DNA from: Pocillopora damicornis
Lineage: Eukaryota
NCBI RefSeq assembly: GCF_003704095.1
Contig: NW_020844573.1
Location: 806,001-870,000, forward strand
Direction of reading: 5' to 3'
Length of the DNA: 64,000 nt
In this document: in pieces, positions 22,601 to 47,534 of the stretch
Layout of the letters: each line of letters starts with the position of its first letter
How positions within the stretch are numbered: the first letter of the stretch is position 1
The notes under the pieces: model-generated
The model's input: the letters and a program-made list of their open reading frames with translations, nothing else
What the model was told of the DNA's origin: nothing
The model's database searches: none
Made by a program: the position numbers and the translations under genes

Positions 22601-24779
22601 GATACGTTTTCTACAGGTAACTTGCAATCATTTTTTTTTTTTTTTCATTTTCAGTTTTCTCAATTAGTGAGTCTTTCTTTCGCATTTTTTTTTGATGTAA
22701 CGCTCCGAATTTCAATGCAAAATAGAAAGGAAAACCTCTGGAATTAGGGAAGACGTTGAAACAAAACAGATGGACATTATGATACTTTTTTAATGTGTGC
22801 CAGGCTTTGCACAATAATTGTTCGTCGCTTGTCGTGGACTTTTGTAGTGAGGTTGTGAAGCAAGAATTGGACAAATTATACGAAGAAAGAAAAGTGAAGG
22901 CCGTTGTGACGATCCAATGCTGTCTCAGGAGATGGATCTGTCGAAAGAGATGGCCAAACCTAAAACGTTCATTGGAACTTCAGAGAAAAGGCCGGCAGGG
23001 TAGCAAAACTAATCACAGGTAAATATTGTAAACCGATAGCCAAAGGTATTTGAAGAGTAGTAAGGAGGGATAAGGTTAAGGTTGATAGTGAATTTGCCAC
23101 GACGTCAAGACGCATAGCTTAGATTTTATTTTTGTCCCACGTTCATGAAGTACTTTGATTGCTTTTTCGCGATGTCGTCCAAGACTGTAGTTTGCTTCTC
23201 CCCTAACTAAGCCTCGTCGCTTTAACTCAATATCTCTTTTTATAGTCTTGTTCGCAGATCAGTTTCCCCGTCGGATGAGCTTCGGGTTGACACGAAGGCT
23301 GCCGACCAGTCATGCTGTCTCTTCGGAATCGATATGGTAGGTTGGCTTTCGTAAAGGAGAGAGTTGGGAATACAGTGATTCATTTAGGATTACTGCTGTT
23401 TAGTATGAAAAAATGGTTCGTAACGTGAGATAGAGCATTGTTTTTACTCTGCACCGCTTTGTGATCGATCTAAAACAAAAATACCGCGAAATGGAAAACA
23501 AGGACAGAATCATAAGTTTTTTGCTGCCATCTTTTCAGGAGACTCCCCCACCTTTGCCTAAAAGCCGTCCGTATACTGTGCTAGGAAATATGAAGATGGG
23601 GTTCCCACAAAATCGTATCATGAAAATGGATTATCCAGGTGAGTGAACTATGTGCTTCATTATAATTGGCAAAATAAGAAAATAAATTTCATTTTTTTTT
23701 TTTACTGCCACCTTTAGATGACGGAAGCGAAGTTCTCCTGAAGAAAGGAGAAGTTGTAAAGGTGGTTCGGGCATCAGAAAAAAGAGGTTATCTGGTTATA
23801 GAGCACAGAGGCGCAACAGTTCACTTACCTTTTCAGGTTATGGAGCTTAAGGTACGTGTTTAATATGCTTTGCCTTTGTTTATCACTCAAGCAATTTGAG
23901 ACGTTGTGCGACGTGATTGGCGAACGTGACCATGGATGTAATGCGTGCTAGCCATGACTCTAAATGTTCGGTTGCCTTAGTTAGTCTGCTTGTCCAGCGT
24001 CTCTTCTTGCAGATAACAATTTATTAATTGAATCTTTGTGCAAATGGTCATTAAAGTCTCGTTTTGTGGCGCCTAAGTTTTCCTTAGACAATTTAACTCT
24101 TTCGTTATCCGTATTTTGCCTGCACTGTTATTTTTTTTGACACCTGATTTGATTAAGACCTACTGGATATGTAGTTCTAACACTGACGCTAATATAACAT
24201 GATTTTAAAATAGTGTTCAGCTTTGATGTGGGATCGAGCGTCTTTGGATAAGGTTTACAGATAGGACATTTATCGATCAAATGAAGATTAATTTTGCAAG
24301 CAAGCAAACAAGAACTCAAAGGGGCATATGATTGGCAGGGAGGATGGCGTGAGATCCTTGGACCAATCAGTCTTAAGTTGAGGCAAACCACTGCTCTATT
24401 TAAACCAATCAAATGTAACGGAACATTGACCCTGAGCAAAGCTTGTTCCCACATTGCTGTGATCGTTTTCCGAACACAGTTCGAAAGTAAAGTTTGCGTG
24501 TCGTAGGTTCTGGGATTTTCCCCTTTAATTAGGGACAAATTAAAGTTTTTTCTTAACTGATAGCACCTTATTAATAGAAATGTTTACTTGGGTCGAATAA
24601 TTTACCTTTCTTCCCTAGAATTATAGTCGAATCATTCATGTTAAAGCAGTCAAATTCCCTCGATATTTCACCCAGGAATGATAGACAAGAATATTTTGAC
24701 TCTTTCATGCGAGCTTTGAGGAACGAGTGACTCAAAGGGTAATTTTTTCTAGAATTCTCCGAACCCTTCACCGAGGTGA
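10663..24779 (+). CDS. dachs: Dachs-type unconventional myosin (class XX): N-terminal coiled coil, motor domain, IQ motif, SH3-like tail
   Basis: Exons: 10663-11089, 12743-12868, 13036-13181, 13699-13862, 14141-14237, 14585-14662, 14782-14856, [gap], <15214-15291, 15395-15513, 15799-16024, 16415-16521, 16872-16969, 17088-17163, 17871-17917, 18920-18976, 19175-19232, 19572-19652, 19954-20078, 20680-20731, 21147-21212, 21835-21934, 22418-22616, 22848-23018, 23246-23336, 23539-23638, 23718-23851, and a probable last coding exon 24753-24779. Dachs-like motifs: DDLVHLTGPITEAALL, P-loop SGSGGSGKT, AGGGMDSDICKH, TNSDSSR, RDSLAKALYCRTVAAIVRR, DMFGFE, NCNFGFATHLF, FVRCIK, IQ motif TIQCCLRRWICRK, and tail PPPLPKSRPYTVLGNMKMGFPQNRIMKMDYP...LKKGEVVKVV...RGYLVIEHRGATVHLPFQ. 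Some motor exons fall in the N gap. Confidence 0.9.
12041..12262. mobile_element. Non-autonomous piggyBac-like MITE (degenerate copy)
   Basis: Internal sequence (GACCAAGACA...AATATCAA...GGAGAATTAC...TGGGAGTGAAA) is shared with the copies at 20866-21062 and 21939-22150. Confidence 0.65.
12475..12626. mobile_element. MITE with CTGGGxCCAGTTGT...TTGAACAACCAGGTCCTG-type terminal inverted repeats
   Basis: The termini are imperfect inverted repeats and resemble those of the element at 61493-61736. GGATA/TATCC motifs occur internally. Confidence 0.6.
15114..15213. other. Assembly gap inside the dachs motor region
   Basis: 100 N. The motor segment expected between YLLDS and AILLLGNVEF (normally carrying NYHIFY) is absent, so the true gap is probably larger. 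Confidence 0.95.
17200..17560 (+). repeat. Dispersed CCAATCAG/GCGTTTTCCCGCG repeat with an internal ~115 bp tandem duplication
   Basis: Two units of CTCG..CCAATCAG(G/A)TGCAAAA..GAAACAAA..GCGTC..GCGTTTTCCCGCG. Related copies lie at 18020-18590, 20215-20370(-), 21270-21550(-), 58540-58720(-) and 61385-61495. Confidence 0.75.
17664..17800 (+). mobile_element. Penelope-derived short repeat with a minimal hammerhead ribozyme core (cleavage triplet mutated)
   Basis: TGACT-CTGAAGA-tgacttccgcacaggttgtc-GAAAC-GCC-AGTCA. Helix I is TGACT/AGTCA, and the CUGANGA and GAAA boxes are present. The triplet is GCC rather than GUC. Confidence 0.7.
18020..18590 (+). repeat. Tandem array of the CCAATCAG dispersed repeat (about three units)
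   Basis: Units around 18085, 18270 and 18380 repeat the pattern seen at 17275-17470. Confidence 0.75.
19254..19387. mobile_element. Short MITE with CAACCTCG..CCAGG / CCTGG..GAGGTT terminal inverted repeats
   Basis: caacctcgtgtccagg ... cctggaaaagaggtta, flanked by CTT on both sides. The interior has a pyrimidine-rich half and a purine-rich half. Confidence 0.65.
20391..20606. mobile_element. piggyBac-like MITE (related subfamily)
   Basis: tagccctttaacccc ... ggagtgtaaaggattaa, with degenerate TTAACCCTTT/AAAGGGTTAA ends. Related copies lie at ~5735-5875, 25751-25930, 59727-59921 and 62697-62916. Confidence 0.65.
20866..21062. mobile_element. piggyBac-like MITE
   Basis: Right end is GGGAGGGAAAGGGTTAA. 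The interior is closely similar to 21939-22150. Confidence 0.7.
21213..21834 (+). other. GC-AG intron in dachs
   Basis: The exon ends FVRCIK with AAG|GCAAGT. The next exon (INTREEPYSFDR) starts in phase 0, and no in-phase GT donor is available. Confidence 0.75.
21270..21550 (-). repeat. Near-complete copy of the CCAATCAG dispersed repeat
   Basis: AAGCGCGGGAAAACGCGGGCGACCAAGTCGTGATTGG...GGACCAATCACAAAGCGAAGTAAAGCAAAACC is the reverse complement of the 17200-17560 family. Confidence 0.75.
21939..22150. mobile_element. piggyBac-like MITE with both TTAA target-site copies
   Basis: TTAA|CCCTTAGACTCCC ... GGGAGCGAACGGG|TTAA; 212 bp with no ORF. Confidence 0.8.
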
Positions 24780-27700
24780 CCAGGATGCAGTGATAAGTAA
24801 AGACAAGTTAAGCTATGGTAAGTTTTTTTTAACCTATTTTACTCCGCAAATACTACCGTATATTTTTTGACTCAGTGATAATCGCTGGAGTAAGTCTTAA
24901 AAAAAAAAAAGGTTTTTCGTTTTTTTTTTGTCGTCTACAGGAAATGTGATTGAAGCTTGTTGGAGAGGGTTTAGCTTATTACGTCAGCTATCCGTTCTAA
25001 TCTTAGAAAGCAGATAGGACTATGGCCCTCATAAGCAGAACACCGCAAAGTTACGAGCATGAACTCTATTGAATAAAAGGAAACGTATCACTCGCAAAAA
25101 CCTTGTCTTTTGAAAGCGCGTGAAGTAACACACGTGATGTGCACGTGGACATCGGCATTGTGTCAGGAGTTATTTACAATTGGCTAGTGCTGAAGATGGT
25201 TAATCTGTGTACCTATCTATCAGCTGAAAATCAACAGTAACAATAATGCAAGTACAGAAGTGGACATAGCGCAGCATTTCTTGTCCGATAAAATTTACGA
25301 TAGCATCTTGCTGAAGATTTATATATGTATATAGGGTGACAATGTATTTTAAGCTCTGTGAGTTTTTACAACCATGGTGTAAACCTTGACGAATGATTTT
25401 GTGGAATGATTTTTCTTCCTAAGTGAAAATACTGTTGAAAAATAGGAATATTTTTGTAACGTATGAACAAAGCATTTAAAGCTACCTGTTGTATGGTTCT
25501 TTTCTGAGTGACTACGTGGGCGCGTGGACGCGTGGCGGTGTATCTGCCGACTCGCGTGGTTACGTGGTAGTTAACGAGTTACGTGGGAGTTTGTTGATTC
25601 CTTGTATTCAAATCTGTTTTTCCCGCAAAAAACGCCAAGAGACTAGAAATCTTTCATTCGCGAAACGTCGTGTCGAAGAACACCAACTGAACTGAAGTTT
25701 GTTTTATTTTGGGTGTCTTAGACAGATATCAGTTTTAAGCCCGGTAGCGATTAACCCCTTTACTCTTAATACCACTTCTCCTCACTGTTTTCCGTACGTT
25801 TCTTGTAGTAAGGCCTGAGAAATTGGTGTTTGATCAAACACTAATTTCGTACTTATGTTTATATTTGTTCTCATCGCCTTTCTTTTTCGGTAATGTGTCG
25901 ATATTGTGGGAAGAAACTTCTCAGTTTTTACTGCTGCGAATAATTTCAGCCAGTGGTAGTCTCTTTTTCGGTTTTGATAGCCTAAGAATTGACCATGCCC
26001 ACTTTGAAATGTACTCGTGGCCTGTCATTCTCGCTTTCTCAAACAACTTGAAAATCTGTCATTTCTTAGAACTGGTGAGTTTTAGTGCGTAAGGTCGGTG
26101 CAATTAGCTTGTGTTTAAGCTAATCACTTTTATTTTGATGTCAGTTTTGCGGAAATTCTATAGGATTTGTAAAGACAAAGTTGCAGAAAGTTTTTCAGTT
26201 CACCTTTTCCTCTCCGGAGTTACGTCTTTGGAGTGAAAGTTTGCTTATTCTTGTGGTAATCCAGAAGCAAAAGCATATCAGGGGAAAACATTCCGAAACT
26301 ATTAAAGTTATTAACTCCAAATGAAATGTTTCTGGTTGGAGACGAGTTAGTTCGTCTTAATCGGCGTGTAAACTCGCGGTGGGTTGGTAGTTTCACTTCG
26401 ATAGCGGTTATCTGATGAAAAGTCGAGAAAGACGGTAAAAATGTTGAAGCACGGTTTAAATCTAATGATAAAATTTCAGTTGTTTATAGAAGATACGGCA
26501 TTGTTTACAGATGGAAGCCATATTTTTGTATTTTCGTGCGGTCATCGTTCATATTATGGATAGTCGAAGTTTCGAGCCTTGATGTTAAAGAAGAAGAAAC
26601 CTTTTTAGAACAAAATTAGCTTCAGGCATAACTATTGAATACTGATAGCACTTTACAATTTCCCTTACTATGTTTTTCCCTTCTTTGTCCTTCCTGGTGC
26701 CAAGTTCATCCCAGCAGGTGAATCATATTGATTTCACTCCCATATCTTTTCAACTCTCTGAGGACTAATTGTTTATAATGTTCAATTGCAGCTCTCGCAT
26801 TGTGCTCTTTAAAGGCATCGTGATTTCTTTAAGCAGGCTTTAAGCTGCAAAGTCAACTGACATGTTGCTTGCGACTGAATAGAGCGAACGAGTACTTCTC
26901 AGTGAAGGAAGAAAATTGTATTGAGAGCCTTTAGTCAATTGTCAAATTCTTCTATCGCTTTTTCTGTACATCATCTTCTTTGGCGCTCTTAAGTGTGGTT
27001 CATTTTAAAGCTCTACGGGAGAGAAAAACTCTTCCAAGGAAAAATTCAAAAATAAGAGAAATGGACTCTGATCTCCGAGAGTGTTCTCAACTTGTGTTGC
27101 TAAATATTGCTAATCGTTTATGACACAACGTTACACCTGACTTCATTTTTAAATACCCACTAGCCATTCGGCTTAAAAATGCCTTTGTTTGCCATAAATT
27201 GCCCCATAAACAAAGAAATCACCATCTAATAGCGATAATTTCCCCTCCGGCTTGTGAAAGGCGCGCCTATTTTGTTTTGGGAACGAGAAGAATAGGCAAA
27301 TGATCAAGCACAGTCCAGCTGAGATGTAACCTTTCAACTCTCTGTTGCGTTAGGTAATGTTTTCAGTTTTTCTTCTTCATCCATCTGAAAATAGCAGCGG
27401 TAAAGATTTCATCGCGGCTTGAATCCTGAGCGGGGACATTTTTTGAGGGGCTGGAATTTTAATTTTGGTTCTGAATTTCGAGTTTACCAGCTTCCTTGTC
27501 TTTTTAATATTTTGTTCTTTTTACCTTTTTATTCTTAAAGCTTGTCAGCAAACTATGTCCCCGATGCGGCCTCTCACTAAACTTTTCACCTCTTATATTG
27601 TAAATTACAAACACTGATTCCCGTTGAGAAAATGCATTAACGTTCAACTTTCAGGTTTTTTTTTGCCCAGCAACGACAGGACGAGAAAATTAGCCGACAG

Positions 27701-28229: not shown

Positions 28230-28510
28230 GCGTAAACAATCAAATGATAGTGTGGGTAAGTCATAAAGGCGTTGTTCTCGATTTTCTAAGTAAATATTTG
28301 CAGAAGCGATGCATGTGTCTTGTGACGCCGTGAAATATTGTCTAATGAGTCATTAGTGCGTGAGATGAGTTTTCTGCCAAGCAACCTGTTTCCGCTCTAA
28401 TCGGCCAATGTGTGGTCTAAATGCGGTTATGGATTGTTTGTAAATAAATAATTTGACACAAAAGCTCTACTTATCTTATAAACAAACAGTGCCGGTGGTC
28501 CATAAATAAA
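28230..28510 (+). promoter_or_regulatory. Fox-A promoter dense in forkhead (RYAAAYA) sites
   Basis: GTAAACAA at 28232, GTAAATATTTGC at 28290-28301, TGTTTGTAAATAAATA at 28435-28450, ATAAACAAACAGTG at 28478-28491, ATAAATA at 28502, and CCAAT at 28405. Confidence 0.6.
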
Positions 28511-28547
28511 AGTCACAACCCCGTGCGACTTTTTCCCAGTGCCTCCA

Positions 28548-29753
28548 ATGTTCCAAGCAGTCCTGACTGCTTCTCAAGATCTCCAGGCTTATCACTCCGT
28601 CCTTAAAGATCGCAAAGTGAACTCAAACGAGATGTTTCCGTCGCACCGTAGTTGTTACCCTACGCCGTACATGTGTCAGCCATCTTTTCACCCAGCTTTA
28701 CCGAGCTATACTTCAGCATTTTATCCTCAATGGGGTCGAGCTGGCTTCGCTCTGAACTGCCATGGCGGAGGAATATTCTTCCGTGAACAAGAGCCACTCC
28801 CAAAACCTCCTTACTCATATGTGGCTCTCATCTCCATGGCCATCAAACAAGCGCCAAACGAAAAAATTACACTCAGTGGAATTTATCAGTTTATCACGGA
28901 GAACTTTCCGTATTATCGCCTTAACAAACGAGGCTGGCAAAATAGCATTCGACACAACTTGTCGTTAAACAAATGCTTCGTGAAAATACCTCGCGAGCGC
29001 TCCGATCCCGGAAAGGGATGCTACTGGAGTTTGGATCCGTCTTACGAGGAAATGTTCGAGGAAGGAAATTTCCGAAGAAGGCGAAGGAGACAGAGAAATT
29101 ACCGCGGAAAGGAAGATGAAGATGACGAAGGAGATGAAGACAATGGAATTTCGACAGAGTTGGAGGCATGCTCAAAGGAGAACGACAGTTTGCGAGGACA
29201 CGCCGCTAAAAACCCTCTAAAGCAAGATGGACGAGCCGTAAAGACGACTGCTCAAGACTTAATTCATTCACCTTCGGCAAAAAGTCCTTGTATGGAGGAT
29301 TCTTCCACAGGCGATCAAAGCGAAGCGCAGAGAAACATACCTGTAAATCAGGTGAAGCAAGAGCCTTGCGCAATAGAGCCAATTCACCCTTTTAGTATTG
29401 CAAACATATTAGGGAATAAGCAAGCGAAAGAGAGGAGGGAACAGATAATGAACGAAACCACCTCGATAAACGAGAACACTGTCGGAGCGCAGACGGTTTC
29501 AGATTTGGTTAAGATTTCATCTTCACGCGTAGACGGGAATTTTCCTGCTCCAAGATTCAGCGTTCCCACAGACTACAGCAGTCCTGTGAAGGGATTCTGT
29601 AACAATTGCACAGCTTTAACCTGTAACAGCACAGGAATAAACCCTCATTCTCTCAACGTTTACAGTTCAGTTTGGACTGTTCCTGGTTCGCCGCGTTCGA
29701 GCGGATTGTGTAGTCAGTGTACCTGCCTGAACTGCCGTACTCTTAGTTACTAA
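28548..29753 (+). CDS. Intronless forkhead transcription factor (FoxL/FoxC-related, here Fox-A) with an eh1 motif and Cys-rich tail
   Basis: The first ATG is at 28548. Forkhead domain: [15 protein letters not shown]...[20 protein letters not shown]...[10 protein letters not shown]...[13 protein letters not shown]. eh1 motif: [10 protein letters not shown]. The subclass cannot be assigned confidently by eye. Confidence 0.95.
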
Positions 29754-32700
29754 CACACGGTGACTATCTTAAGCATGTGTGAACCGACATGAACAAGAGC
29801 TGGAAAGTTTTAGATTTTTTCTTGATTTGTGGTTATAAACGGTTTTCAAGCGATAGCGCACGAACGCGAGGCTAACAGGATCACGTCTGATCAGCCTTAG
29901 TTACTAAGCGTGGCTAATTGCAACTAAACGAAAAGTTACCGTTTGTGCCATTTTGCTGATAATTGGACAAATCTGTTGCCCACAACATTTAAAACTCGTA
30001 GATCACCCGAAAGATTTGTACCTAAACTTCCCAGGTATTGCGTCTTGAAGCGAAATTTGGGAAACACATAACTGCGGATGAATCTTCCTTGAAAATATGT
30101 TTTGATCAGAAAAATCGCATCAGTTCAAAATCGTAATAAAGTGATAAAATCTGAGACATTGATTTATCTTTTTATTTAATGGGTATTCTCCGCTCTTGAG
30201 TACTTAAATAACATACAGGAAAGCTCAAAAAATTACGGATGACAGAAAGATTTTGTACATCGATCGTTACAGGATGCTCTGTTCTAATTCAGGACGAGCA
30301 GGCGAAACACGAATTTGGCAAAGGATTAGGCATTCACTCGGAAAGTTTGCGGTAATTTTTTTTTCAAATTTGCTGAAAAACTATTCGAGGCGTGCCTCGA
30401 GACCTTTTACCCCAGGCGACCACAGTGGGTTACAGCTTTTCTATTAATAATATCTACCAATCCTTTCAAACGTATTTGTCTGAATTGCGCGATTTAGCTA
30501 CTGAATAAACATTTTTCTTTCCTATTTGCGAATCTTTCGTGTGTGCTGTAAATATTGATACGATGAAGGATAAACAAATAACTTTCCCTGTTGTCAAGAA
30601 ATATTGTTGAAGGGTAGTCAATTTAAGTAAATACGCCGACGACTCTCCTATTTTATTCTGACACTAGAAAAGAAAAACTTCAACAGATTTTAGCTTTACA
30701 AACACTAGTCCCGAGAAACACATTTCATTCATTATACATGCGGGCAGGGATCATTTGATGTTTACCCCTGACACTTCCGGTTCGCAGAATTGTTATTTCA
30801 GGGACTAAATTAGCGACTGAAATTGTCGTTTTACTGTTTATCCATCTTATTTCTCAAACACAGGTAAATAACTAAGTGGTTTCACGAAAAAAGGCTTTTT
30901 TCGATTTTTCCCATGCCACTCGATATGCGACCTAACTTGACACAGTCGTTTCGTAAACATTTTTAATTCACGTAACTATTGGAGAAAAGACAGCATTTAG
31001 CAAAGCGGTTTAGCTCGGTTTATAAAGACAGTAACCTTATTATAGATCTTGTTATTCTAGCTGCAGGTTGCTTTTACTAGCTTGGTCTTCTCTCTATGAC
31101 AAACGCGGGTCCTCGGGGTCGTAGTGGTAAAAAAAAAAGATTTCGCAGCAGGGATGAAGCCTGGAATAAAATGCGTTAGATGAGATTGTCGGCTGTGCCT
31201 TCAGAGGCCTTTGTTCATCCACTACACCTGTTTTCGAGGTATTTTATCAAAAATGTAAACCAAGAATCGAAGGCAGACAAAAGGGAACGTTTAAACATCG
31301 TGGTATGTCAAATTGACCTCATTAATTCTTAAACAAAACTATAGCAACTAATGGAAAAACTAAATCTTCAACAATCCGCTTATCGGACTAAAATCCTTGT
31401 GAAAACAAAGAATAAACTGTGTATTATCTGGGGGTTTGTAATAACATTATAACAGATTCATGAGACTACAGTGATCAGCAAGAGTTTCCTTAACGATAGC
31501 TTCTCATGGAAATGCAGCCGAGAAAAAATCTTTGACAAGCTTTTTTTTCTTTAACTTCGGCTGTTTGCCGCTCAAGCTTGCTTTGTTGTCTTTCCCGAAG
31601 TCAAACAGAACTCTAGGCGTTTGTATATACTGTATTGTGTTTAATGTGTTTGTGGAAGAGTTATTTAAGATGTAAGCTTCTTAGAGATTACGAAATATTG
31701 TCTGAATTCAATTTTCCGTTTTTCAAATTTTATTTCAACCAATGTCACTGTCATTCTTTGTTCATAACTGGCGTGTCTAAGAGACAGTTGTTGATTTCTT
31801 TTCATGTTCTTGTGGGTTTGCGGCATTATCAGCAGTGATATGAACAAGATTCATGTTATTCACCGATGACAAAAAGAAACTTAACAGGGCGAGGGAAGAA
31901 CGAAATCACGGCCGGCCGCCTCTCTCCTGAATCTCACGACACCGTTGCCTTTGGATTATCTGCGAGAGGGTTTTTTGTTTGACTCTTGATTAAAAAAGAA
32001 AAGGAATAATTTGAAGTAGAATAATTCGCCGTAGAGGTTTGCCCACAAGAGAAAAAAGTGACAGAGAGAGAGATATTGAGGTGAGAGGAAAGCACCCTGA
32101 ATCATACTGAGAAGATGTCCGTTAAAACGCATTGATAGGAATTTTCTGAATTAACTACGCGTAATTGAATCATCGAAACAGAGAGCACGAAACTGGGAAG
32201 CTGGCAATGTTTCTCTTCAGCTCTAAATGAAACATTGAAAAAATACACATCTGATGGCCGGGTTTAGAAATGAATATATATTGTTGTTCACTGGTTGTGG
32301 CAGTAATTCCGTTCGAGCCTGAACGGCAGATGAAAAAATCTTGTTGTTGCATCACAATTTTAATTGTATCAAATTTTCTGAAGAAGCCAAGATTCTCAAT
32401 ATCCAACATTTTTAAAACAACTGCGGTTTGAGGCAATCTTTAGTTGCACCCAAAATATAAAAAGAGATCTCAAGTAAAGTACTGTTCTTCTTCAAGGAAG
32501 GTCTGAACTGCTCAAATGAGTCAATCGAGGATGCTTCGCCTCACAGCAGGCTTCACAGATTTTCCTTTCTCTTTCAGTGTAAGAGTTCCTGATCAACCTA
32601 CATGAAACGTTCGCCCGTAAATCAGTGAGACAAAAACACGATCATAGAATAATCTATCTTAGGGAAACTTGTTTCTATTATTTTGCTTGACAAGATTTTC

Positions 32701-35700
32701 TGGTAAAGCTATTTAATACTAATGAAATACAACTATTTTCCACCATCCTGAACGGTTGCAGCGGTGACATCGGCCTTCTTCAGAGTCAAGTTGGCCTAGA
32801 AGCAATTTGTTTAAGCAACAAAACGGCGAATTTTTTTCACTCTTCCCTCTGGAAAGGAATCAGTGTCCTCATAAACTCAGTTCGGCGTAAATTTCATGCA
32901 AATTCGTCGCTGAATTTTGTCCTACCTCAAAACTGATCCAACGGTTCAATGCAATCTGCGGACACAAAGGTTTCCGAATTTCCTTTACGAGTTAAGTTTC
33001 AAATTGCCAACGACGCTGTTATTTTTCCGTTTTCCTCGAATTTTCCGCTAGCTGGGTTACCGCAAAAAGGACCAATCTTTGAAAGTGAGCCAGTTGAATT
33101 TAAAGACTAAAAAAAATTAGCGAAAGAGCTACAATGTACGTAAAACTTGGTAGGAAAGTTGTTCAACCAAGGGTACATGTTTACCGGTAATCATTGTAAT
33201 TATCAGAGCTGAGTAACTTCGTAAATGAGTTTGTTCAATAAACTTGTGGTCTTATCATAGTTATACAGCAGAGCCAACTATATTTATTCTCCAAATACGC
33301 CGTTCAAATACATCTGTCCAACTCCATGTGCACCTTTCTTCCGCTCTGTTTTGCGTTTGCTTTGTCGAGTGTAATGTGCGTGGTTTTTCGTGGCACATCT
33401 ATAAGCGTGCCGGAAAGTCTTATTCTTGTATACGTTTCACTTTGTTCATTGATGCTTTCACGTATTAGTTTGTGGCTGAGACCACCCGTACATGAAGCTC
33501 GCGAAGAATCGATCAGTGAGCATTTACCAAGGGTCAAAAAGGCCTTCCAATGGGTCAGAAAACTAGAAACACGGAATTTTCCTATCAAAAGAAAGCGATT
33601 AGAATGTGCCGCAAAAAAATCGAAGCTAACATTACTTTACTTTTGATGGAAAGGGACACCAACGCTTTCTGTGACGTATACCACATTCTAGTATTTTGTT
33701 AAGCATATCGATGTAAAAACTCCTGATTTTTTACTAAACGAGTTAGAGTTAATTACGCCAATGTAAATTTACCAAATAAAGTGTTATCAGGGCAATGAAG
33801 TTGGCGCAGTTTTTCAAAGGGCTTATATGCACATGAAAAATAAAAGGGCAACTTGTAGCGAGGGCGACATTTGCACAACCCTCAGAAAATGGCATTGATT
33901 TTATTCCGTCGGTTAGATATGGCGACACAAATATCGTTTTGATCATCGATCTACAACGATGAAGATTTAAAACTGCAGCAGTAATGCAAATAGTGAAAGA
34001 GTGAGGATTGTGTGCAGTCATAACTTCGAAATCGCGTAGCCTTTGTTTTAAATACGGATGTTTCTCCGCCCGCGACCGTTCGTCTCCCCCTATATCGAAA
34101 ACATTCAGCTTAGCCACAGATTGGTGTGTATTTTGCTATTGTACAGGGTGATCGGCTTGTAAGAACTTGCTGCGATCCCGGTACTAAGGTGGGGTTAGAT
34201 TGTTTAACATAAACTGAACATGTTGGCTATAGCAATTTATTCTAGCGGAGATTTTTATTGGCGTACGTAAACCTATGCTTGAATTTACGAGTGACTGGGT
34301 TGTTTACATTGTAAACGGACGGAGACTTCTTTCAAATGTAGTCGACCCAATGTTTACAGAGAAACGGGCGTGGTTATGACTAATAACTCAATGGAACGGA
34401 TCGTCCATAAAAACGAGATGTCTTGTTGAAAATGACGGTATGCAATACTTCAATCAATATTTTACTTGATGCCTTTATTTGCAAAAACTACATGGGCAAT
34501 TTAGTTTTACATCCTCTTTAACATGCTGTTAGAATCTCCTCAAGACTCTTGGACGTAGAGGTTTACTTTAACAATTAAATAATAATTTCCATGGTTGTAA
34601 GAGAATGAAAAATGTTTCAGACGAGTTTTCAGCTTCTAGGCAAAACACGCGCGAATTATCACGTTAGACAAGCCACGCGTAACTCACGTGGGAGTATTAG
34701 GAACCGTTGTCCAGTTAAAGTTAGGGGGGGACCTTAATCATGCAATCACAAAAAATGGAACATTTCTGTACTATTTCACCTATTCAATGACTAATTCGAT
34801 TTAATATACAATTTTTCCTACTTCCATCTTCGCTTGTTTGAGTCAGGTCCAAGAATTGCATGAGATAAATTTGCACACGTGGAAGCCATTTCACACCCAC
34901 GTGGTAGATGAAAGCCAACAAAATTTCACAGCGGCACGCGATCTTTTCTTTTTTGCGAAGAACATCGCTTTAGCTTGATGATAGGAAAAAACACTCAAGA
35001 TGTTTTCGATATCTTTTGTTTTCCAATACCATGAAAAAGACAATATAGGCAAGTTCCTATTATGAGTTCTTCCTGAAAGGTCGCCATTATGTCTCGAGCT
35101 TTTTTCAAAAAAAAAATACGAGAAAAAGCATTAGTCAGGGTTATTCTCTTTTTGCTATTATACCAGATTCCTTTGTGAAATGATCACTTCACTTGACGCC
35201 ACTATACGCTTACAAAGTCCATGGACAATTGCCAATCTGGCTTATTGTTGTAAATCTGTAGGAAGTTACGTTCCTGTGGTTATTTGAGCCGGAACAAAAG
35301 CTCTGTATGGTTCGACTCCACCTTGGCGCTTCGCAATCTATTCCTTCTGTCAAATTGGTGCCATCTGTGGGATTCGTCCCCTTCAAACTCATGCTCCTCT
35401 CAGCAGGACTCTCCATGTATTCTTCAAACATATCTACTCCAAAGATTTCATGTTATTTCATTTAAACCGAGCTTAATCGTCGAAAATTTAGATAACTGCC
35501 TTTTCTTTTTAACTGTCAAAATGAGTAATGTTTTTCCTTGAGATTTGTTTTTCGTTATTTTATCTAGTACAGCCGATAATCCCTAAACAATTTTCGTGTT
35601 TTCTTTTACTCCATTATATTCCCAAGGTGATATAATTATTAGGAACTGCCTGTTGTGTTCAATTTTAATCAAACGAAAATGATTTCTTTGTATCAACTGT

Positions 35701-38700
35701 AAATGTTGATCTACGTCTTGAAAGTAGAAATAAAAGAAATATTTCCCCGTTTGAATTTAATCTGGAATTCTAATGAACGCTCCGATGTTTTGTATGATAA
35801 CAGGAGAAACTTGGGAGCAATGACGAAAAATAAATGGTGCACTACATCGCATTACATTGCATGAATATAGCAACTCTCACTATTCTGAAGAAATTCTTTT
35901 TGCTTCTGATAAAAAAATAAAAGATTCTAGATAAAATATTGCTGAGAGGAAGCGTTGTTGTAACTTTTAAGTCTATGGATATTATCTGGTAATGTTGCCA
36001 TTTGGAAGAAACCTTATAAACAGCAGTTTCTCGAGTTATTTTCAAGTATTTTCGAAAACGGAATTTTGGGGTTTTTTCTAAAATTATCATATAAACCTCT
36101 CAGAAGTGAAAGAAATATGAATACTAGTGATTTTTGAAGAAAGGAACGTATACCTCATGACCTGTTACTTGTCGGTCAGACACGCAGTTAAGTCTTGAAC
36201 TATTGCCAAACCAATTTAATTTTGAACCACTGAAGTTGTTTATGTAGAGATATGAAAGTATTTCAGGATTTTTAGTTTATACTGGATAAACCGCAAGGTA
36301 AACATATCTGGCTGCTAGCAAAAGCCCGTTAAGTTACTCCTCATGGGGAAAATAAGAGGATTAAAACAGGCGAGATGATCCCTTATTGACAGATTAAACG
36401 CTGTCTCTTCATTTCAAAATGAAGAAGTTAAGAAGGAAGGAAGGAAGGCAAGAGGTCTCGAATACTTTGAAAAAAAAAAAAATGCTGTATCAAGCATTTG
36501 CAGGGTTAATCCGCTTCCTTCAACACTGACAGTGCTACCCTCATTCTACTCAGTTGGAAAGTTTCCTAATCGATTCCTGAACCTCCTATAGATTTGTTTA
36601 CGATGTTTTTCGATGGTTTTGTCCTGAAGCGCCCTAGTTTTCCGCCAACACAGCAGAAAGAACAAACCTCCTCCTCGTGGTCAAAAATATGAGCACGTTT
36701 TCACCGGCGAGACAATCGCTCTTCCTTTCCTGTTGTGAAAACTACACCTTTCGCCTGATTAAGAAATTTCAATTCGACTTGGAATTAAGTGAAGGGAAAA
36801 AAAAATCCTTCCAAATCATGGCGAATGGCGGACTTCAAACGCTATCCATCAGATGGTGTTTTTCGCGTTTGCAATGTATAATTCAATCAAATCAAGATCG
36901 TCTAGGTTACATATGTGTGAGCTCTCCACTTCATTGCGTTTTTCCATGCATCACATTGTAAATACGCATCTCGCTTTTACTTGGTTTCCTACTGAAAATT
37001 CCTTTTTTTTCTCCTGTTTTCCATAGTTCCACAGCCATAGCTTTTGCCAGTAATTTGGCAGTAAAGAATCCTAGGATTGTTTTGATTTTTAGTCAAGAAT
37101 TACGAATTAAATTAAAAACGCATTGAGTCCAAGTGTCTTTTAAGGAAGAGCAGACACTCTTATTTAATTCTAATTTGGCCGTCTGATACGCGTATGTAAT
37201 TAGAAGGCGGTCGTGGTATTCAAGACATCTTATAGACCGTTCACCGAATTATTTCGCTTTGTCACGAAGAACCTTGCAATTCATTTGCTTTATTTGTCGG
37301 TAAAATGAGTTAATTCCTTTAGCCTCTTTTTTTGTGAGTTCCGCGCCTAGCTTGCGATATTCGGTTTCACTAACCTCAGAATTCAAGAAAAAAAACTTGC
37401 ATTGCATTGCATTCTTTCGTTTAGAGAGAAAGTAGAAAAAATCGATTTAAAACTATATTAGACATTGATATGCTAGCTGTGAATTATGTCATTACCAAAC
37501 TTGTTCTTATAGATTTCGCAGACAGTTACATTCTTTGAGTCTCAAAGGGCAGCATCACACTCTTACAAACACGGCCTTACTTCTGGCATGAATGAATAAA
37601 ACTAAAACAATGTTTTGAATATCTGTCTTAAAAAGCTCTCGCGGTAGTTTGATTAGTTTAAGACACAATTCGAAACTTTATCGACATTGGCATCACACCC
37701 TTAACGAATCATCTGTTATAAATCCGTCCGGCGAGATCGAGTGCTTTTCTTACGCAGGAAAAGATTACTGTACTTAACAAGTGTTTTAAAACAGTTTATG
37801 CTCACGGTAATTCCGCCAAAAACGCAACCCTTAAAGGTATTAGGCGTATGTAGTTGCATTCAATATTGTTTTTGTCCTTCTCGGGGCGACATGAAGAGGC
37901 TAATACCCGTGTAAAGAGGTTGGGTCTTTATCTTTCAAACCAGCTTGTCTCATGTGCTGTCTGAACTGCTTTTTTTGAGAAGTCTCGCGTGATGAAACAA
38001 ACGCTATTGGATTTCAGGATATCGACACATTTTGTCTGTATTTCAACCCTTCTTGTTAACCAGAGGTCACTCAATATATTGAAAATTCCATCGTGGCTAA
38101 TTAAGACGTTTAAAAAGATACTCGAAGGCTCTCAATTTTGTGACCCTTTGCGCGGCTACGTCTAAAATCTAAACATATTTTAGTTGGCAAGCTCTTCCCA
38201 CCAGTGAAACATGTCCTCATCAAACTCTTAACCGAAAAAAAAAAGGTATATAGAATTAATTCTACCAAATTGGGCCAAGAGGCTTTGCAGTCATTAAAAA
38301 AGAAAACCTCTGAAATAATTCCGACTTTCGCTCACGACAATTTGGACGATAAACATTTTTTTGGAAAAAAACGTCAAATTGGGAGCATACCATAGAAAAT
38401 GCTGGGTTTCGTGGTAAAAAGGAAAAGGAAAGCTCTTTTAAACCGAGAGAATGTAAACTGATTTCCTCAATATCAGAAACTGTTAAATCATAATCACTGA
38501 CCCCGTTTTCGTTGTCTATACACCCCCAGATGGGTATTATAATTCGTTTTCTTTGGCTCTTTTTCCATCGCTTTACTTAACCCCGAACCAGGCATTTTAA
38601 GTTATCATCTATGCTTTGTCAAAAGAGGCCCGCCGTACAAATCGAATTTGGAACAAGCCTAAGTTTTGAGCAATGATCGTGAAACACCAATGGGTCTTGA

Positions 38701-41700
38701 AAGGAGTTCTGTGATGCATTCATAGCACTTTGAGGGATATTTAGTCTTAGAACTTTTAGTAAATCAGCGATGAGAATTACTTGGCAAAATCAGTGTATTT
38801 TTTATTACCGCAAGTTGCAGGCGACCTTGAACACCTTTAATGTGGAAGCTTTGAACCGTTTTATGCCATTTACTGGTGAGGAATGTTCACTGGAAACCTT
38901 CCTCCCCAGGCCTTTTTATGCGCACATGAATAGTTTGAGGAGATTATCAGTTTATATTCTCTTGAAAAATTTCCAAGTGTTCTTGTCAAGGGAACGTATT
39001 ATTTGTCTAATTTTGTTTTCAAAATGTTTTTCCTAAATTTATTTATGAATTTTTATCTGTGCGCCTGAAGAAAAAAACATACATTTCTATTAAATAAAAT
39101 ACTCGTGACTTTAAAGGATTACTCAAAACTACTTAGGTTACTCGAAGAAAAAAAAAATATAAGATCATTGACATTATTAATTGATGGAATTTTTTTAAGT
39201 ACAATGACCGACAAAATTACGAGCAGTGTGTGGTAAATTTTCAAATGCCGGAAAATGAATGGCACGCGAGCTTTCAGCTTATCTCGTTGCTGAGTAGATA
39301 CGAATTTTAGGGCATAGTCATCTATTACTGAAGAAAGAATCTTTTTCCAAGCTTTCCAAGCGGACTAATTTTATTCCTAGGGGGGAAAATCTTTCTATAA
39401 CCAGTCAAAATCGTTTGCGGATTGAGACTGGGACAAACAGATTACTTTTTTTTTCAATAAATAGAACTCGAGATCAAAAATTAATGAAGCACGAGAAAGA
39501 TTTAGTGTAAGCGCTTTATTAAACAATTGTTTGGTTCACGATAATAAAGCATTATTGCCCAGGCGACTAAGAGAATGCAGCCAGAAAGTCGTTTGTAATC
39601 TACTTCAAAAGCATGAGAATATACAAAGTTAATAATTTCTTGCTCGCAACTAAATATACATTCAGATTGTACTCCACTACAATCAAAAGCCACAGCGCTT
39701 TTTACAACCTGAATTGTTTGGTTATTTTTGAAAAAATAAAATGGATAAAGTCATCCCCTAAGTATATTATATAAATTAACAAACGTCAATAAAAAAAACT
39801 CTCGGAACTCTTACAGATTTAATGAAGGCTGAAATTTTCATATGGCCACTCTACCTGGCTGTCTCCAATCGAGAAAGACGTGTTGCTTCAAGGCTTAAAA
39901 TAGTTGTAGCCGACATGGCTTTGATTTGTTTATCGATCGCTGTCGTTCAGTTTTTTTTTTTTCGACACCCATTTGACACTTTATTCATTACAGCAATGCC
40001 TGCTAGGTAATTAGCAGAATTTAACTACTCTTCCATATCGCTGAGCTCAAAAGAAGCAGCAAGTCTTTCTATCGGGCATTCACCTTAGATTTCTTGTCAA
40101 AAGAGGTACGTGAGTTGTCACATACACAATTTGAGATGTCAGTGTTTCGGCTGCAATGAACTGAAAAGTGCAGACTGCCTCAGCAAGCAAAGTTTTCCTG
40201 ATTGTCATATAATCCTACCGAACAAAATGTCTTTCAAAATTTCGTGTTCATTTGTGGTTGGAGACCCTTTTTTCGGGTCAACAGTGATTGAGAAAATACC
40301 ATATACTTTTATTTAAAAGCTGTACTCAGTTCACTGATAACGAGTGAAAACACAAGAAAATTGACGACAAAGAGTCTCATTTACGGAAGGAATTTTGAGA
40401 ACATATCTTTAACTGATAGCACAGCGACTGTTTTGATTTCGTCCAAAATTGTTTCTCCGATCAGATGATTCCGATAAGGTTCGTAATGACGGAAATTGCC
40501 TAATTTTGTAGACGCATCTGGGAAGATAACTGCTTTCCCAGTTAGCGGCACGTCTCCGATCATTTTACTACATAAACAGTAATTTCCTCGGTTAAATAAC
40601 ATTGTTTACTAATTTGGCTTGGTATAACCTCACAGATTCTTGATGCTTTGCGGTCAAACTGATTCAATGAGTTATTTTTCATTTTCCGAGAGGAAATCTT
40701 TGCGAAGACTAAATTCTCCCAAATGGAAGTGTGGAAGATGTATAGCAATAGCCAGAAGATTTTTGATGTTGAGCTTACCTTGAGTTGTGACGGAGGTTTG
40801 ATGATGTAGCGGGTTTCCTTTCAAAGCGTAGCCTAATGGAGCACCAAGTCAAAACAAGATAACAAGCTGAGTAAAATACTCCAAGTCCTCTATCAAACTC
40901 TAACTCTTGCTTGATAATTTGTTAGGATTTCGTGATAAAGTAAGCGCTTTCAAAAAAAAAAGAAAAAAATTGGATATATGTTATTATGATAACAAACTGG
41001 GATGCACTTAGAAAACAAGTCCTCTAAATTTGCTCCTGTGTTTGAGGAAATGTATCGGGATAGTTCTTTTTAAAAGCCACCTGATATTTGCTAAATATCA
41101 AATATTGTTGAACGTGACTGATTGAAATCAGTACAGTTTTCGAGCTTGTTCATGAAGGCCTTTTTTTTACCAATCATTTAATAAACCCAGATAGACGACA
41201 CAATTCAGTGTTGAGTTTTGATTCTTTTATCTCAGGAAAACCGGCTGGAGATATTCAGCTCTTCCTTACAGCCTGACTCGTGGTTGTACAAATAAACTAC
41301 GCAGCACGCTTATGTAAACTTCATAGGCACGCTATCAAATAAACGTGGAAACCTTTCAGAGATAGAATTTGATAAATGTCAAAATAACCTCGCGTATACT
41401 GAGTAATTTCAGTAAGCCAAAATCCTACATACTGCCACGGATTGACGTTTGGTTTATAAGTATTTAACAAGAGACCGCGGTGTACAGGCGGAAGATTATC
41501 TCAGTTCTATATAGCTGCTAATCCATGTCAGTCTCATCCTGCTCTCCTCTAAGGAATTGGTTTTGTTTTTGGATTATCATACGACGACAGATTTTTCTAG
41601 TTCTTACAATATTTTTGATACAATTTTTGATACAGAAAAGAGAAGTTATGACTGCACCAACTGAATCAACTGTTTGCGAGACACTAAAAGAAAGGAAACA

Positions 41701-42649
41701 TCAAAGATTTAGGTTTAGTTAGAATTGAAGATTTGTAAGCGATAGAGGGTTAGATTTGTCTCAAATACAATAGAAAAAAAATTACGCCATAAACAGACAG
41801 AAGTTTTTTTGCTATATATTTTTATTCTCTTGTTTATCATTTTACAGTACAGTGTAACGTAAACAACGAGTGTGTTTTGAAAATGTCTCCAGCGTGTGGT
41901 TGAATTTTGGTTTTGTTATGTCGCAATTTGCTCATGTAACGACATGTAGACATCTTGCTACAAATACGTTTTCGCCCTGGATCTCTTATGGTCTTAAGAC
42001 CTTCTTAGTTGTTCGTTGGTTTGTTTACTTTTTCTTTTGGCAACCCATTATAGATAACTCATGAACAACGATTTGATCATAAAATATTTTGTCAACTTGA
42101 CTTGAGAGAGAACGGTGTTGTCGAAACTATTATCAAGTGAACAACTTCCCATTTCACTGAGACTCTCGAAAACACTAGTACCTTGATGACAACTACTTGC
42201 CCGCAAACAAAACCGAAATCTCCTTTGATTGCCGCAACTCCTACACATTAAATATAAACCAGGGACAACGGATATGAGACATTTTTTTTCCCTGATTTCT
42301 GTTTTGAAATAAAATGTTGTCTCGGCAGTCTGTACAGAGGCGAAAACATCAATACATTTCATTTGATTGACTTGAATTACAAACAACCGCGACGCGGCTT
42401 AAAAAGCTGGTTTAATTTTGATTTTGCAATTCTAGATGATAACACTTTTTCTGACCGAGATCAATTTAAATGGCCAGTGTTTGTTCGATTTTTCTTGACA
42501 TCAGTTTCTGAAAGGTTATTCATTCAAACTCAAATTTTGGGTTTCTCGTAGAAACGTAATATTGAAACATTTCTACTTGTACTTCTGCTGTTCATTGTCT
42601 CTTAGAAGGAACTCTACAGTTCTACTTTTCAAGCTAATATATATGACAA

Positions 42650-43456
42650 TCATCGATCACCAAGGAGTCTTTCGATGCTAAACTTCAAACCACAAGTTGA
42701 AGAGTCATCACATTTTGCATCCATAGCCATATTTTGTTCGTCAGGAAAGGTCGAGTGTCTTTGGTTTTGTAGTGGCGAAAAACAACGCTGTTTTTCGAAC
42801 GAACTTTCATGACAAAGTTCATTGTCAGAAGTCTCCAATTTCTTGTCTTCTCTGTCGCGATCGTAACTCGAACTTGCACTGTTGACGGTTTTCTCGCTTT
42901 GCTCTTCTGTCTCTTCGACGTGCTCTTCTCTAGGAGAACTCGGGGAAGTGTCTTCTTCTCGTTGTCTCGCACTGACTATTTGTTTCGGCCTTCGTTTTCG
43001 CCTCCAAAATCGCCCCTCTTCAAACATCTCCTCAAAGGACGAATCCAGAGTCCAGTAGCAGCCTTTTCCAGGATCCGATTTGTCGCGGGGAACTTTCACA
43101 AAGCACTTGTTCAACGAGAGATTGTGCCGAATACTATTTTGCCAACCTCTTCTGCTCTGCTGGTAGTACGGAAAGTTCATCATAATAAACTGGTAAATCC
43201 CGCTTAGTGTAACTTTTTTCTCCGGCGAGTTCTTGATGGCCATGGATATGAGAGCAACGTAAGAGTATGGTGGTTTGGGGAGCATTTCCGCGCAACCATA
43301 AATCCCGAATCCTGAACCATAGCTCGAGTAGCTGCAACCTGAATTGTAATAGCAACAAGAACACAGGCCTTCGATCCCTTGTTGTCGAAATCTCTGCGTT
43401 GGTAGAGAGAGTTGTGTGTACGGTGAAAATCTCATTGCGGCGAATGTGTTGTACAT
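42650..43456 (-). CDS. Intronless forkhead transcription factor (paralogue, here Fox-B) with a C-terminal eh1 motif
   Basis: The first in-frame ATG is at 43456 (the ORF track start at 43558 is a TTG). Forkhead domain: [75 protein letters not shown]. Terminal eh1: KFSIERLLG. Confidence 0.95.
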
Positions 43457-43489
43457 GTTGGATTGTGTCCGATGAGCAGTGGGCTCACT

Positions 43490-43940
43490 GCTTATAAAGC
43501 CTTTGTTTGTAGTCGACGTAACGCCAATGCTCACCGTGGCATTCTCAGCCAACTTCAAAGCGGATATGGGTTTGGAGACGCCCTAGACCACCCAGGCTTG
43601 GATTGATTGTCCTGAGACTGGTGTCTCACTGTTTGTTTACAGTACAAGTTTAAGTGTTTTTGAGACCACACAGCTAAGTATTACTATTGTTTTAAACATG
43701 GACGGCAGTTTGAGCTCGGATTAGTGAATTTCTGATTATTTTGTTCGAATTCCAACAACTCATAGTGCTTAGAGTTTTATTTGAAAATTACGATTTCAGA
43801 TAATGCAAATTATTGACATGCGATAACTTACGATGTTCAGAATAGAAAGGAAGAAACGTATGCGCGTTTGGAAGCGATCATCTGTTCGAAAATCCATTGC
43901 TCCATTATCTCTCGCCAGCAGATGGATAAATATTTACACG
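43490..43940 (-). promoter_or_regulatory. Fox-B promoter with a TATA-like box and forkhead sites
   Basis: On the minus strand: TTTATAAG near 43491-43498, GTAAACAAACAGTG at 43640-43627, and GTAAATATTTAT at 43937-43926. Confidence 0.6.
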
Positions 43941-46895: not shown

Positions 46896-47534
46896 AATAA
46901 TGACAATCTTTAATGAGGAAACTTTTTCACTAAAAAGTGGTTTACAAAAAGGACCTCGAAAATTAAAAATTAAAAATTTACAATGAATAAAAATGCTAAA
47001 AGATGCTACTAAAAACTAATGTATCTTATGTGTAATACAAAACTTAAATCAATGAATTAAAAATCTGACGCTTCAAAATATTTACATTATCAGAGGCTCG
47101 TATAGTTTTGTCCAGCGAGTTAAAATCACTTACAGCATGATAGCCAGTTCTTTGTTTGCCCCAGTTTCTTTTAACGGATGGAATTTTGAGGTTTGCTTTA
47201 TTTCTTGTGTTGTAACTATGCTGTTCTTGCTGAGTGACTAATGTTAGTTCGTGATGCGTGAGACCATTAAGACATTTATATACATGTACGCATCGGCGCT
47301 GGAAGCGCCTTTTTTCTAGTGTTAACCACTTCAGTGTAGTTAACGCATCAGACGCAGAGGAATACAGTGGTCGATCTAATATTATTTTAGCCGCCTTATT
47401 TTGAAGCACTTGCAAACTAGACATTAAAGTTACATTATGTTTGTCTCCCCAAACTAAATCAGCATACTCGAATAAGGGCATAACAAGGCTTTTATAAAAA
47501 AGGATGCGCACCTTAAACGGTAACAAATGCTTAG
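46896..47534 (-). mobile_element. 5'-truncated LINE (L2/CR1/Crack-like) with the ORF2 C-terminus and 3' UTR
   Basis: ORF 47526-47044 (LFYKSLVMPLFEYADLVWG...LQVLQNKAAKIIL...LKWLTLEKRR...HSYNTR) is the typical post-RT C-terminus of these LINEs. The 3' UTR has a hairpin ACTTTTT-cact-AAAAAGT and an ATTAAAG..ATTATT tail. AGCATT at 46890-46895 and 47535-47540 is a candidate target-site duplication. Confidence 0.85.

Follow-up and report, generated by a model that had tools for sequence, protein, structure and literature searches.

Conserved promoter elements shared by a convergent pair of Fox genes in the coral Pocillopora damicornis, and their candidate readers

Do two neighboring, duplicated genes for putative repressors answer to a common input, or does each hold the other in check? 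This question is raised by a 64,000-nucleotide stretch of the Pocillopora damicornis genome (assembly GCF_003704095.1, contig NW_020844573.1, positions 806,001 to 870,000; hereafter the window), in which two convergent forkhead genes, each a single open reading frame, lie tail to tail with their stops 12.9 kb apart. Gene A, the NvFox5 orthologue, occupies 28632..29753 on the plus strand and encodes 373 aa counted from the conserved ATG, a second in-frame ATG farther upstream (28548) not being conserved; gene B, the NvFox1 orthologue, occupies 42650..43456 on the minus strand and encodes 268 aa. Each product contains an eh1-type motif, a motif that binds Groucho: FSIANIL in A (29391..29411, plus strand), found in 31/31 A-type proteins, and FSIERLL at the C-terminus of B (42662..42682, minus strand), found in 28 of 31 B-type proteins, the misses being three F-R-I variants. 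The original prediction, made from the letters of the window, had described this pair and its eh1 motifs correctly, and had gone on to propose that the two repressors form a mutual-repression switch. The analyses presented here center on an ordered set of promoter elements found before both genes, which may point to a different answer.

An ordered set of elements before both genes

Both promoters contain one and the same unit in one order, GTGTGGTC followed by AAACAAACA followed by GGTGGTC, and this unit is broader than what had originally been noticed, namely the 13-mer TAAACAAACAGTG at 28479-28491 (plus strand) and 43639-43627 (minus strand), and GTAAATATTT at 28290 (plus) and 43937 (minus). 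Both of these words were found as described, the former without other copies in the window and the latter as two of its four window copies. The accompanying claim that the surrounding DNA lacks similarity proved wrong, as TGTGTGGTCT and GGTGGTC flank the 13-mer in the same order in both promoters. Specifically, the upstream GTGTGGTCT and the downstream GGTGGTC are present in 12/12 A promoters and in 8/8 and 9/9, respectively, of the B promoters covering them, and the three elements have a constant order and strand wherever a coral orthologue of either gene is covered. Across the 20-kb locus, four of the eight GTGGTC words are conserved, all of them sense-strand words of the two promoters (4/4, compared with 4-12% for permuted words). 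The two GTGGTC elements, which the original prediction had missed, show the most specific conservation within the module.

These counts derive from a scan of 51 loci, comprising 11 coral A loci, 10 coral B loci, two loci of a distant hexacoral, one octocoral-type locus (L038, covered for <100 bp upstream of the ATG), and 27 loci dropped as unrelated Fox genes or non-Fox matches. The loci are not independent: with the window counted in, the A loci amount to six different sequence types, of which four are 88-91% alike in protein sequence. The 11 B promoter sequences were reduced to nine by removal of L069 (too short) and L029 (foreign upstream DNA). Beyond about 45 bp upstream of the B start, L029 has in place of the promoter 7.7 kb of unrelated sequence, in which a 446-aa frame lacking any Pfam match is found; this is either an insertion allele or a misassembly. 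Within the distant hexacoral, the A-type locus L024 retains the forkhead core and GGTGGTC before its gene, and L051, its probable B partner, displays TGTGTGGTC-N23-GTAAACAAACAG with the spacing of B. L051 is counted merely as deep conservation; it is placed with B at 57/83, placement with A is not rejected (p 0.20), and the name of its contig has the same prefix and coverage as that of L024. The notion that L051 is an A gene bearing a B-type promoter, which would constitute direct proof of promoter homology, was set aside, L051 being more likely a B gene.

In the A promoter, TGTGTGGTC (28409..28417, plus strand) is a predicted site of either GLI type with one mismatch or RUNX type, and is followed by three overlapping forkhead motifs (28435..28450, plus strand) in a cluster that lies within the longest invariant run of the promoter, 19 bp, and is absent from the original account. 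The 13-mer begins 153 bases before the A start (28632), and GGTGGTC (28494..28500, plus strand) is retained in the 12 coral promoters as well as in L024. RYAAAYA, the forkhead consensus, occurs 10 times within 500 bp upstream of A, compared with at most 5 in 19 other Fox promoters and 4 in 38 Sox/bHLH promoters. In the B promoter, the corresponding elements are TGTGTGGTC (43664..43672, minus strand), upstream of the forkhead site and separated from it by 23 bp, as in L051; GTAAACAAACAGTG (43627..43640, minus strand), in which GTAAACAAACAGT is conserved in 9/9 promoters and the full 13-mer, 183 bases before the B start, in 7/9; and TGGGTGGTC (43586..43594, minus strand), a perfect GLI consensus found in 9/9 B promoters covering the site and the sole one in the window. 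The single GACCACCCA of the window belongs to B; genome-wide, there are 666 copies in 234 Mb.

The words first noticed are conserved unevenly. Among 3000 random pairs of segments, 0.6% (350 bp long) to 2.0% (550 bp long) share an exact word of at least 13 bases, and the 13-mer is found 45 times in the genome, its reversed control 38 times, such that the motif stands above background, if only modestly. As the exact 13-mer is present in 1/12 A promoters but the core AAACAAACA (28480-28488) in 12/12, the identity of the A and B words is partly an accident of the lineage of the window, with the forkhead core as the constrained part; the exact 13-mer identity is not ancient, and in this respect the proposal that the sites were kept since the duplication is unsupported. 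The 13-mer was also considered as the TATA box of A, as it overlaps TATAAA in the window, and was ruled out because 10/12 A promoters show AAAAAC.

A similar picture emerges for the divergent forkhead pair, GTAAATATTTGC in A (28290..28301, plus strand) and GTAAATATTTAT in B (43926..43937, minus strand). The B site lies inside a 57-bp invariant run and is found in 7/7 promoters covering it, and both GTAAATATTTA and GTAAATATTT are likewise found in 7/7 B promoters. In A, GTCAATATTTT is found in 10/12 promoters and GTAAATATTT in 2/12, the remaining 10 carrying GTCAATATTT; GTCAATA is a variant of the forkhead site. The palindromic dimer site of the original prediction is therefore present in both window promoters and in all B promoters that reach it, while the full site is lost in 10/12 A promoters. 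Like the FOXA1 DIV homodimer element (PMC6009666), both window promoters present the AAATATTT core with two intact forkhead half-sites; unlike it, the arrangement is conserved in B only, the 10 A promoters retaining one variant half-site. Cooperativity at the DIV element is documented in that report for FOXA1 and not for the coral A and B proteins.

Age and ancestry of the pair

In a 38-row forkhead-domain tree, its rows selected out of a 98-row set, the anthozoan clade of the Fox1/Fox5 group received support of 100/91 and the hexacoral A+B node 97/89, with a single octocoral lineage as sister; the values for the two nodes in the 98-row tree are 87/87 and 90/87. Because B groups with Nematostella Fox1 (ABA03228.1; 89/84 and 95/86 in the smaller and larger tree) and A agrees by eye with the NvFox5 row of an alignment in supplement 6 of PMC4077281, the A/B duplication is older than the split between anemones and stony corals and belongs to early hexacoral history. 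Linkage and orientation have been preserved, as expected of the old duplicated pair originally proposed: the same convergent layout is found on two metagenome contigs, and the Stylophora orthologues, XP_022781401 and XP_022781399, have near-adjacent accessions and scaffolds of equal length. The B protein is 87% identical to that of Stylophora, and its cluster holds a Pocillopora protein. Given these two orthologues, identity with the Stylophora calicoblast Fox protein XP_022788808, named in PMC8162421, was dismissed.

Affinity to bilaterian classes is a polytomy, in which approximately unbiased tests did not reject union with FoxL1 (0.43), FoxL2 (0.38), or FoxC (0.16) in a tree without FoxI and FoxF rows; the best named bilaterian matches of A are mostly FoxL1. 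FoxC lies on contig C901 and the A/B pair on C1208 of a fragmented assembly. Two divergent Fox genes (L002 and L003, G000:C901) are found at distances of 21 and 35 kb from FoxC. Elsewhere in the window, conserved exons at about 20001-24783 belong to a multi-exon plus-strand gene that lies upstream of A, contains an IQ-like motif, and keeps its synteny in L035/L036, and a 145-aa minus-strand frame (47044-47481) without Pfam match resembles, by eye, a retroelement remnant.

Forkhead sites between the genes

The alignment of orthologues indicates that forkhead-type sites are constrained both in the promoters and between the genes, in line with the original prediction. Of the 75 RYAAAYA motifs in 18.4 kb of non-coding DNA, 23 are conserved in two corals, compared with 11.5% for permutations, none of which (0/104) scored as high; within aligned DNA the count is 23/42 compared with 35% (p 0.006), and in the intergenic part it is 13/47 compared with 8.8% for permuted words. 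The proposal that the interval is forkhead-regulated DNA finds backing in this last comparison and in an 87-bp element 3' of A (30494..30580) with five forkhead motifs, all five of which are retained in all six lineage sets, the distant hexacoral included. This element lies in a larger conserved non-coding block (30359..31743; about 70% identity) that is rich in forkhead sites. The two promoters and the 87-bp element are, with high probability, functional cis-regulatory DNA. As the genome of the window has about 30 Fox loci (38 forkhead matches), no evidence singles out the A and B proteins as the binders.

Further conserved non-coding blocks, 68-83% identical to other corals, are found at 33212-33316, 34912-35330, 35570-35689, 36236-36611, 39966-40056, 40326-40589, 40801-40866, and 42020-42249. 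The interval also gives rise to a low-depth, spliced, apparently non-coding plus-strand RNA (31135..35569) with three GT..AG joints, 31236-31831 and 32078-32576 (X18) and 34436-35261 (X16); its longest ATG frame in the tested chain is 53 aa, and its first donor is not conserved in other corals. The ends of one extra joint, 32595-32924, are those of the minus strand. The interval gave no support for a hidden protein gene, since the matches of its 28 frames of at least 70 aa to other corals are short, gapped, and mostly interrupted by stops.

Candidate readers and rival explanations

The reading that we favor, tentatively and with confidence just short of even, is that of an inherited shared-input module with a GLI-type activator, forkhead feedback that includes the eh1 repressors, and co-expression of the two genes. 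The promoter module of a single ancestral gene would have passed to both duplicates; Hedgehog, acting through a zinc finger of the GLI family, would activate A and B in endomesoderm; forkhead proteins would bind the promoter and intergenic sites; and the A and B eh1 proteins would be among these binders, each damping its own transcription and that of its partner. The two genes would then overlap in expression, in endomesoderm or mesenteries, under negative feedback rather than as a toggle. Taken separately, Gli is a likely reader of the GTGGTC words, with Zic or Runx as alternatives, and the eh1 proteins would probably exert feedback on their own and each other's promoters.

Support for a role of Gli can be found in GACCACACA, described in PMC3828767 as a near-perfect Gli site at zebrafish ptch2, which is present in 8/8 B and 8/12 A promoters. 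Additionally, sense GGTGGTC occurs within 500 bp of 5/30 other Fox loci compared with 0/38 Sox/bHLH loci (39 loci, one without ATG; Fisher p 0.014). In the genome of the window it lies 149-450 bp before the ATG of L004, L005, L007, L009, and L010, which we take to be FoxL2, FoxD, FoxA, Fox3, and a FoxQ2, and the perfect GLI word precedes FoxD and Fox3 as well. L012, another FoxQ2, has a perfect GLI word, antisense, 598 bp before the gene. In Nematostella, ptc and gli function in endomesoderm (PMC7515634, in the main text of which the word 'fox' was not found), and fox1 is expressed in the mesentery during regeneration (PMC12804838).

Several observations weigh against this reading. The GGTGGTC of A differs from the GLI consensus by two mismatches, the upstream word of A is altered to TGTGTGGCT in L024, and a bias toward one strand is unusual for Gli sites. 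All five GGTGGTC-bearing Fox loci fall within the first 19 loci fetched, with 0/11 among those fetched later. Two patched-like genes stand in tandem on one strand (G000:C3189:68283-104903; found with the TIGR00918 profile, PF02460 having missed the gene); the 50 kb around this pair contain no perfect GLI site, and sites with one mismatch are not in excess (7 in 50 kb compared with 13 in 114 kb), one GACCACACA lying some 1.9 kb before the first exon matched. Nematostella fox1 and runt are both ERK-dependent (PMC12804838), which fits Runx equally. Within the two promoters, RYAAAYA is conserved at the background rate (9/15 compared with 47%, p 0.23), no higher than permuted words because the whole promoter is conserved; the conserved count nevertheless exceeds that of all permutations. 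As a separate matter, other genomic sites with the same motif pairs revealed no recognizable Hedgehog targets in three 10-kb stretches considered for long frames only.

Possible, if doubtful, is the explanation that the module is real and old and has other readers, Runx, Zic, or KLF on the GTGGTC words and another Fox protein (FoxA, FoxC, FoxL2) or Sox on the A-rich core, with neither Hedgehog input nor autoregulation. TGTGGTC matches the RUNX consensus, GGGTGGTC that of ZIC, and AACAATG that of SOX, while the KLF consensus fits parts of the GTGGTC words; a Runt gene is present in the genome, as are the other Fox loci, and the patched and ERK observations fall on the same side. Set against these points, TGTGGY elsewhere in the locus is hardly conserved (2/18, p 0.48), the second element lacks the T of the RUNX site, the perfect GLI word stands in the B, FoxD, and Fox3 promoters, and the Sox-like AACAATG, found in 10/12 A promoters, is lost in that of the window itself.

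The mutual-repression switch of the original prediction, in which two eh1 repressors share the intergenic desert, would accord with the eh1 motifs kept in both proteins, the forkhead sites kept in promoters and interval, and the conserved linkage. No evidence specific to it was found, however, and we consider it very unlikely: shared activator-type sites predict co-expression, the dimer site that would be the source of cooperativity is lost in 10/12 A promoters, and RNA contigs without joints span both genes in 6/6 bulk runs from three studies, in which cell types are not separable. These runs were picked by gene A, and their contigs, with ends scattered over 28434-28573 for A and 43469-43665 for B, tell neither expression level nor transcription start.

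Whether the likeness of the two promoters reflects descent is a further question. Of 4000 random pairs, 0.4% attain or surpass the A-B colinear chain score of 18, as do 2/209 other Fox promoter pairs, including an unrelated pair with a higher score; the local alignment of A with B reaches 27, shuffled sequences reaching up to 28, indicating no similarity beyond shuffle level and no alignable block, and the spacing between elements is unlike in the two promoters. If each promoter had been conserved separately, and the likeness were a product of convergence on common short motifs together with chance in the lineage, these results, the occurrence of the exact 13-mer in 1/12 A promoters, and the presence of GGTGGTC before other Fox genes would all be accommodated. 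The constant order and strand of three elements in all covered coral orthologues, parts of which extend to the distant hexacoral, argue against such an origin, which we regard as unlikely. Because other Fox pairs match the chain and the A/B alignment is at shuffle level, homology of the module, inherited from a single ancestral gene, is likely rather than proven.

Duplicated conserved non-coding elements are known to accompany paralogous developmental genes, and the pair resembles such cases in its ordered motifs kept after duplication and in the further conserved elements of the gene-free interval; it differs in that A and B share short words only, at differing spacing and without an alignable block. 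The favored shared-input reading has its closest counterpart in the vertebrate Foxl1/Foxf1 locus, where, as presented in PMC6538877, Hedgehog regulation acts through conserved Gli sites and Foxl1 is cited as a Gli target. The GLI-type sites of A and B are similarly conserved, A has mostly FoxL1 matches, and expression is reported beside a Hedgehog source. The coral sites, however, are promoter-proximal, the coral genes are paralogues of one class, and their Hedgehog dependence is putative. It is conceivable, though rather improbable, that a FoxL1-like mesodermal repressor already received Hedgehog-Gli input before cnidarians and bilaterians diverged, such that a promoter-proximal GLI element and a forkhead feedback site would survive in both hexacoral paralogues; with as little assurance, this input might extend to other clade I Fox genes, namely FoxA, FoxD, FoxL2, Fox3, and a FoxQ2.

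The literature searched contains no account of the module or of Fox1/Fox5 linkage or promoters, subscription papers, the 2005 inventory of Nematostella Fox genes among them, lying outside its scope. To our knowledge, and as an impression rather than a survey, deeply conserved, motif-resolved cis-elements are seldom described in anthozoans. The locus offers two promoters and one 87-bp element that are directly testable in Nematostella, for which hh1 and ptc mutants as well as gli knockdown are available (PMC7515634). Should Gli not prove to be the reader, what stands is a well-supported old promoter module, of an ordinary kind, in a known gene pair. If Gli is the reader, A and B would be candidates for direct targets of Hedgehog in the endomesoderm of cnidarians, and would bear on the age of the link between Hedgehog and Fox genes in mesoderm.

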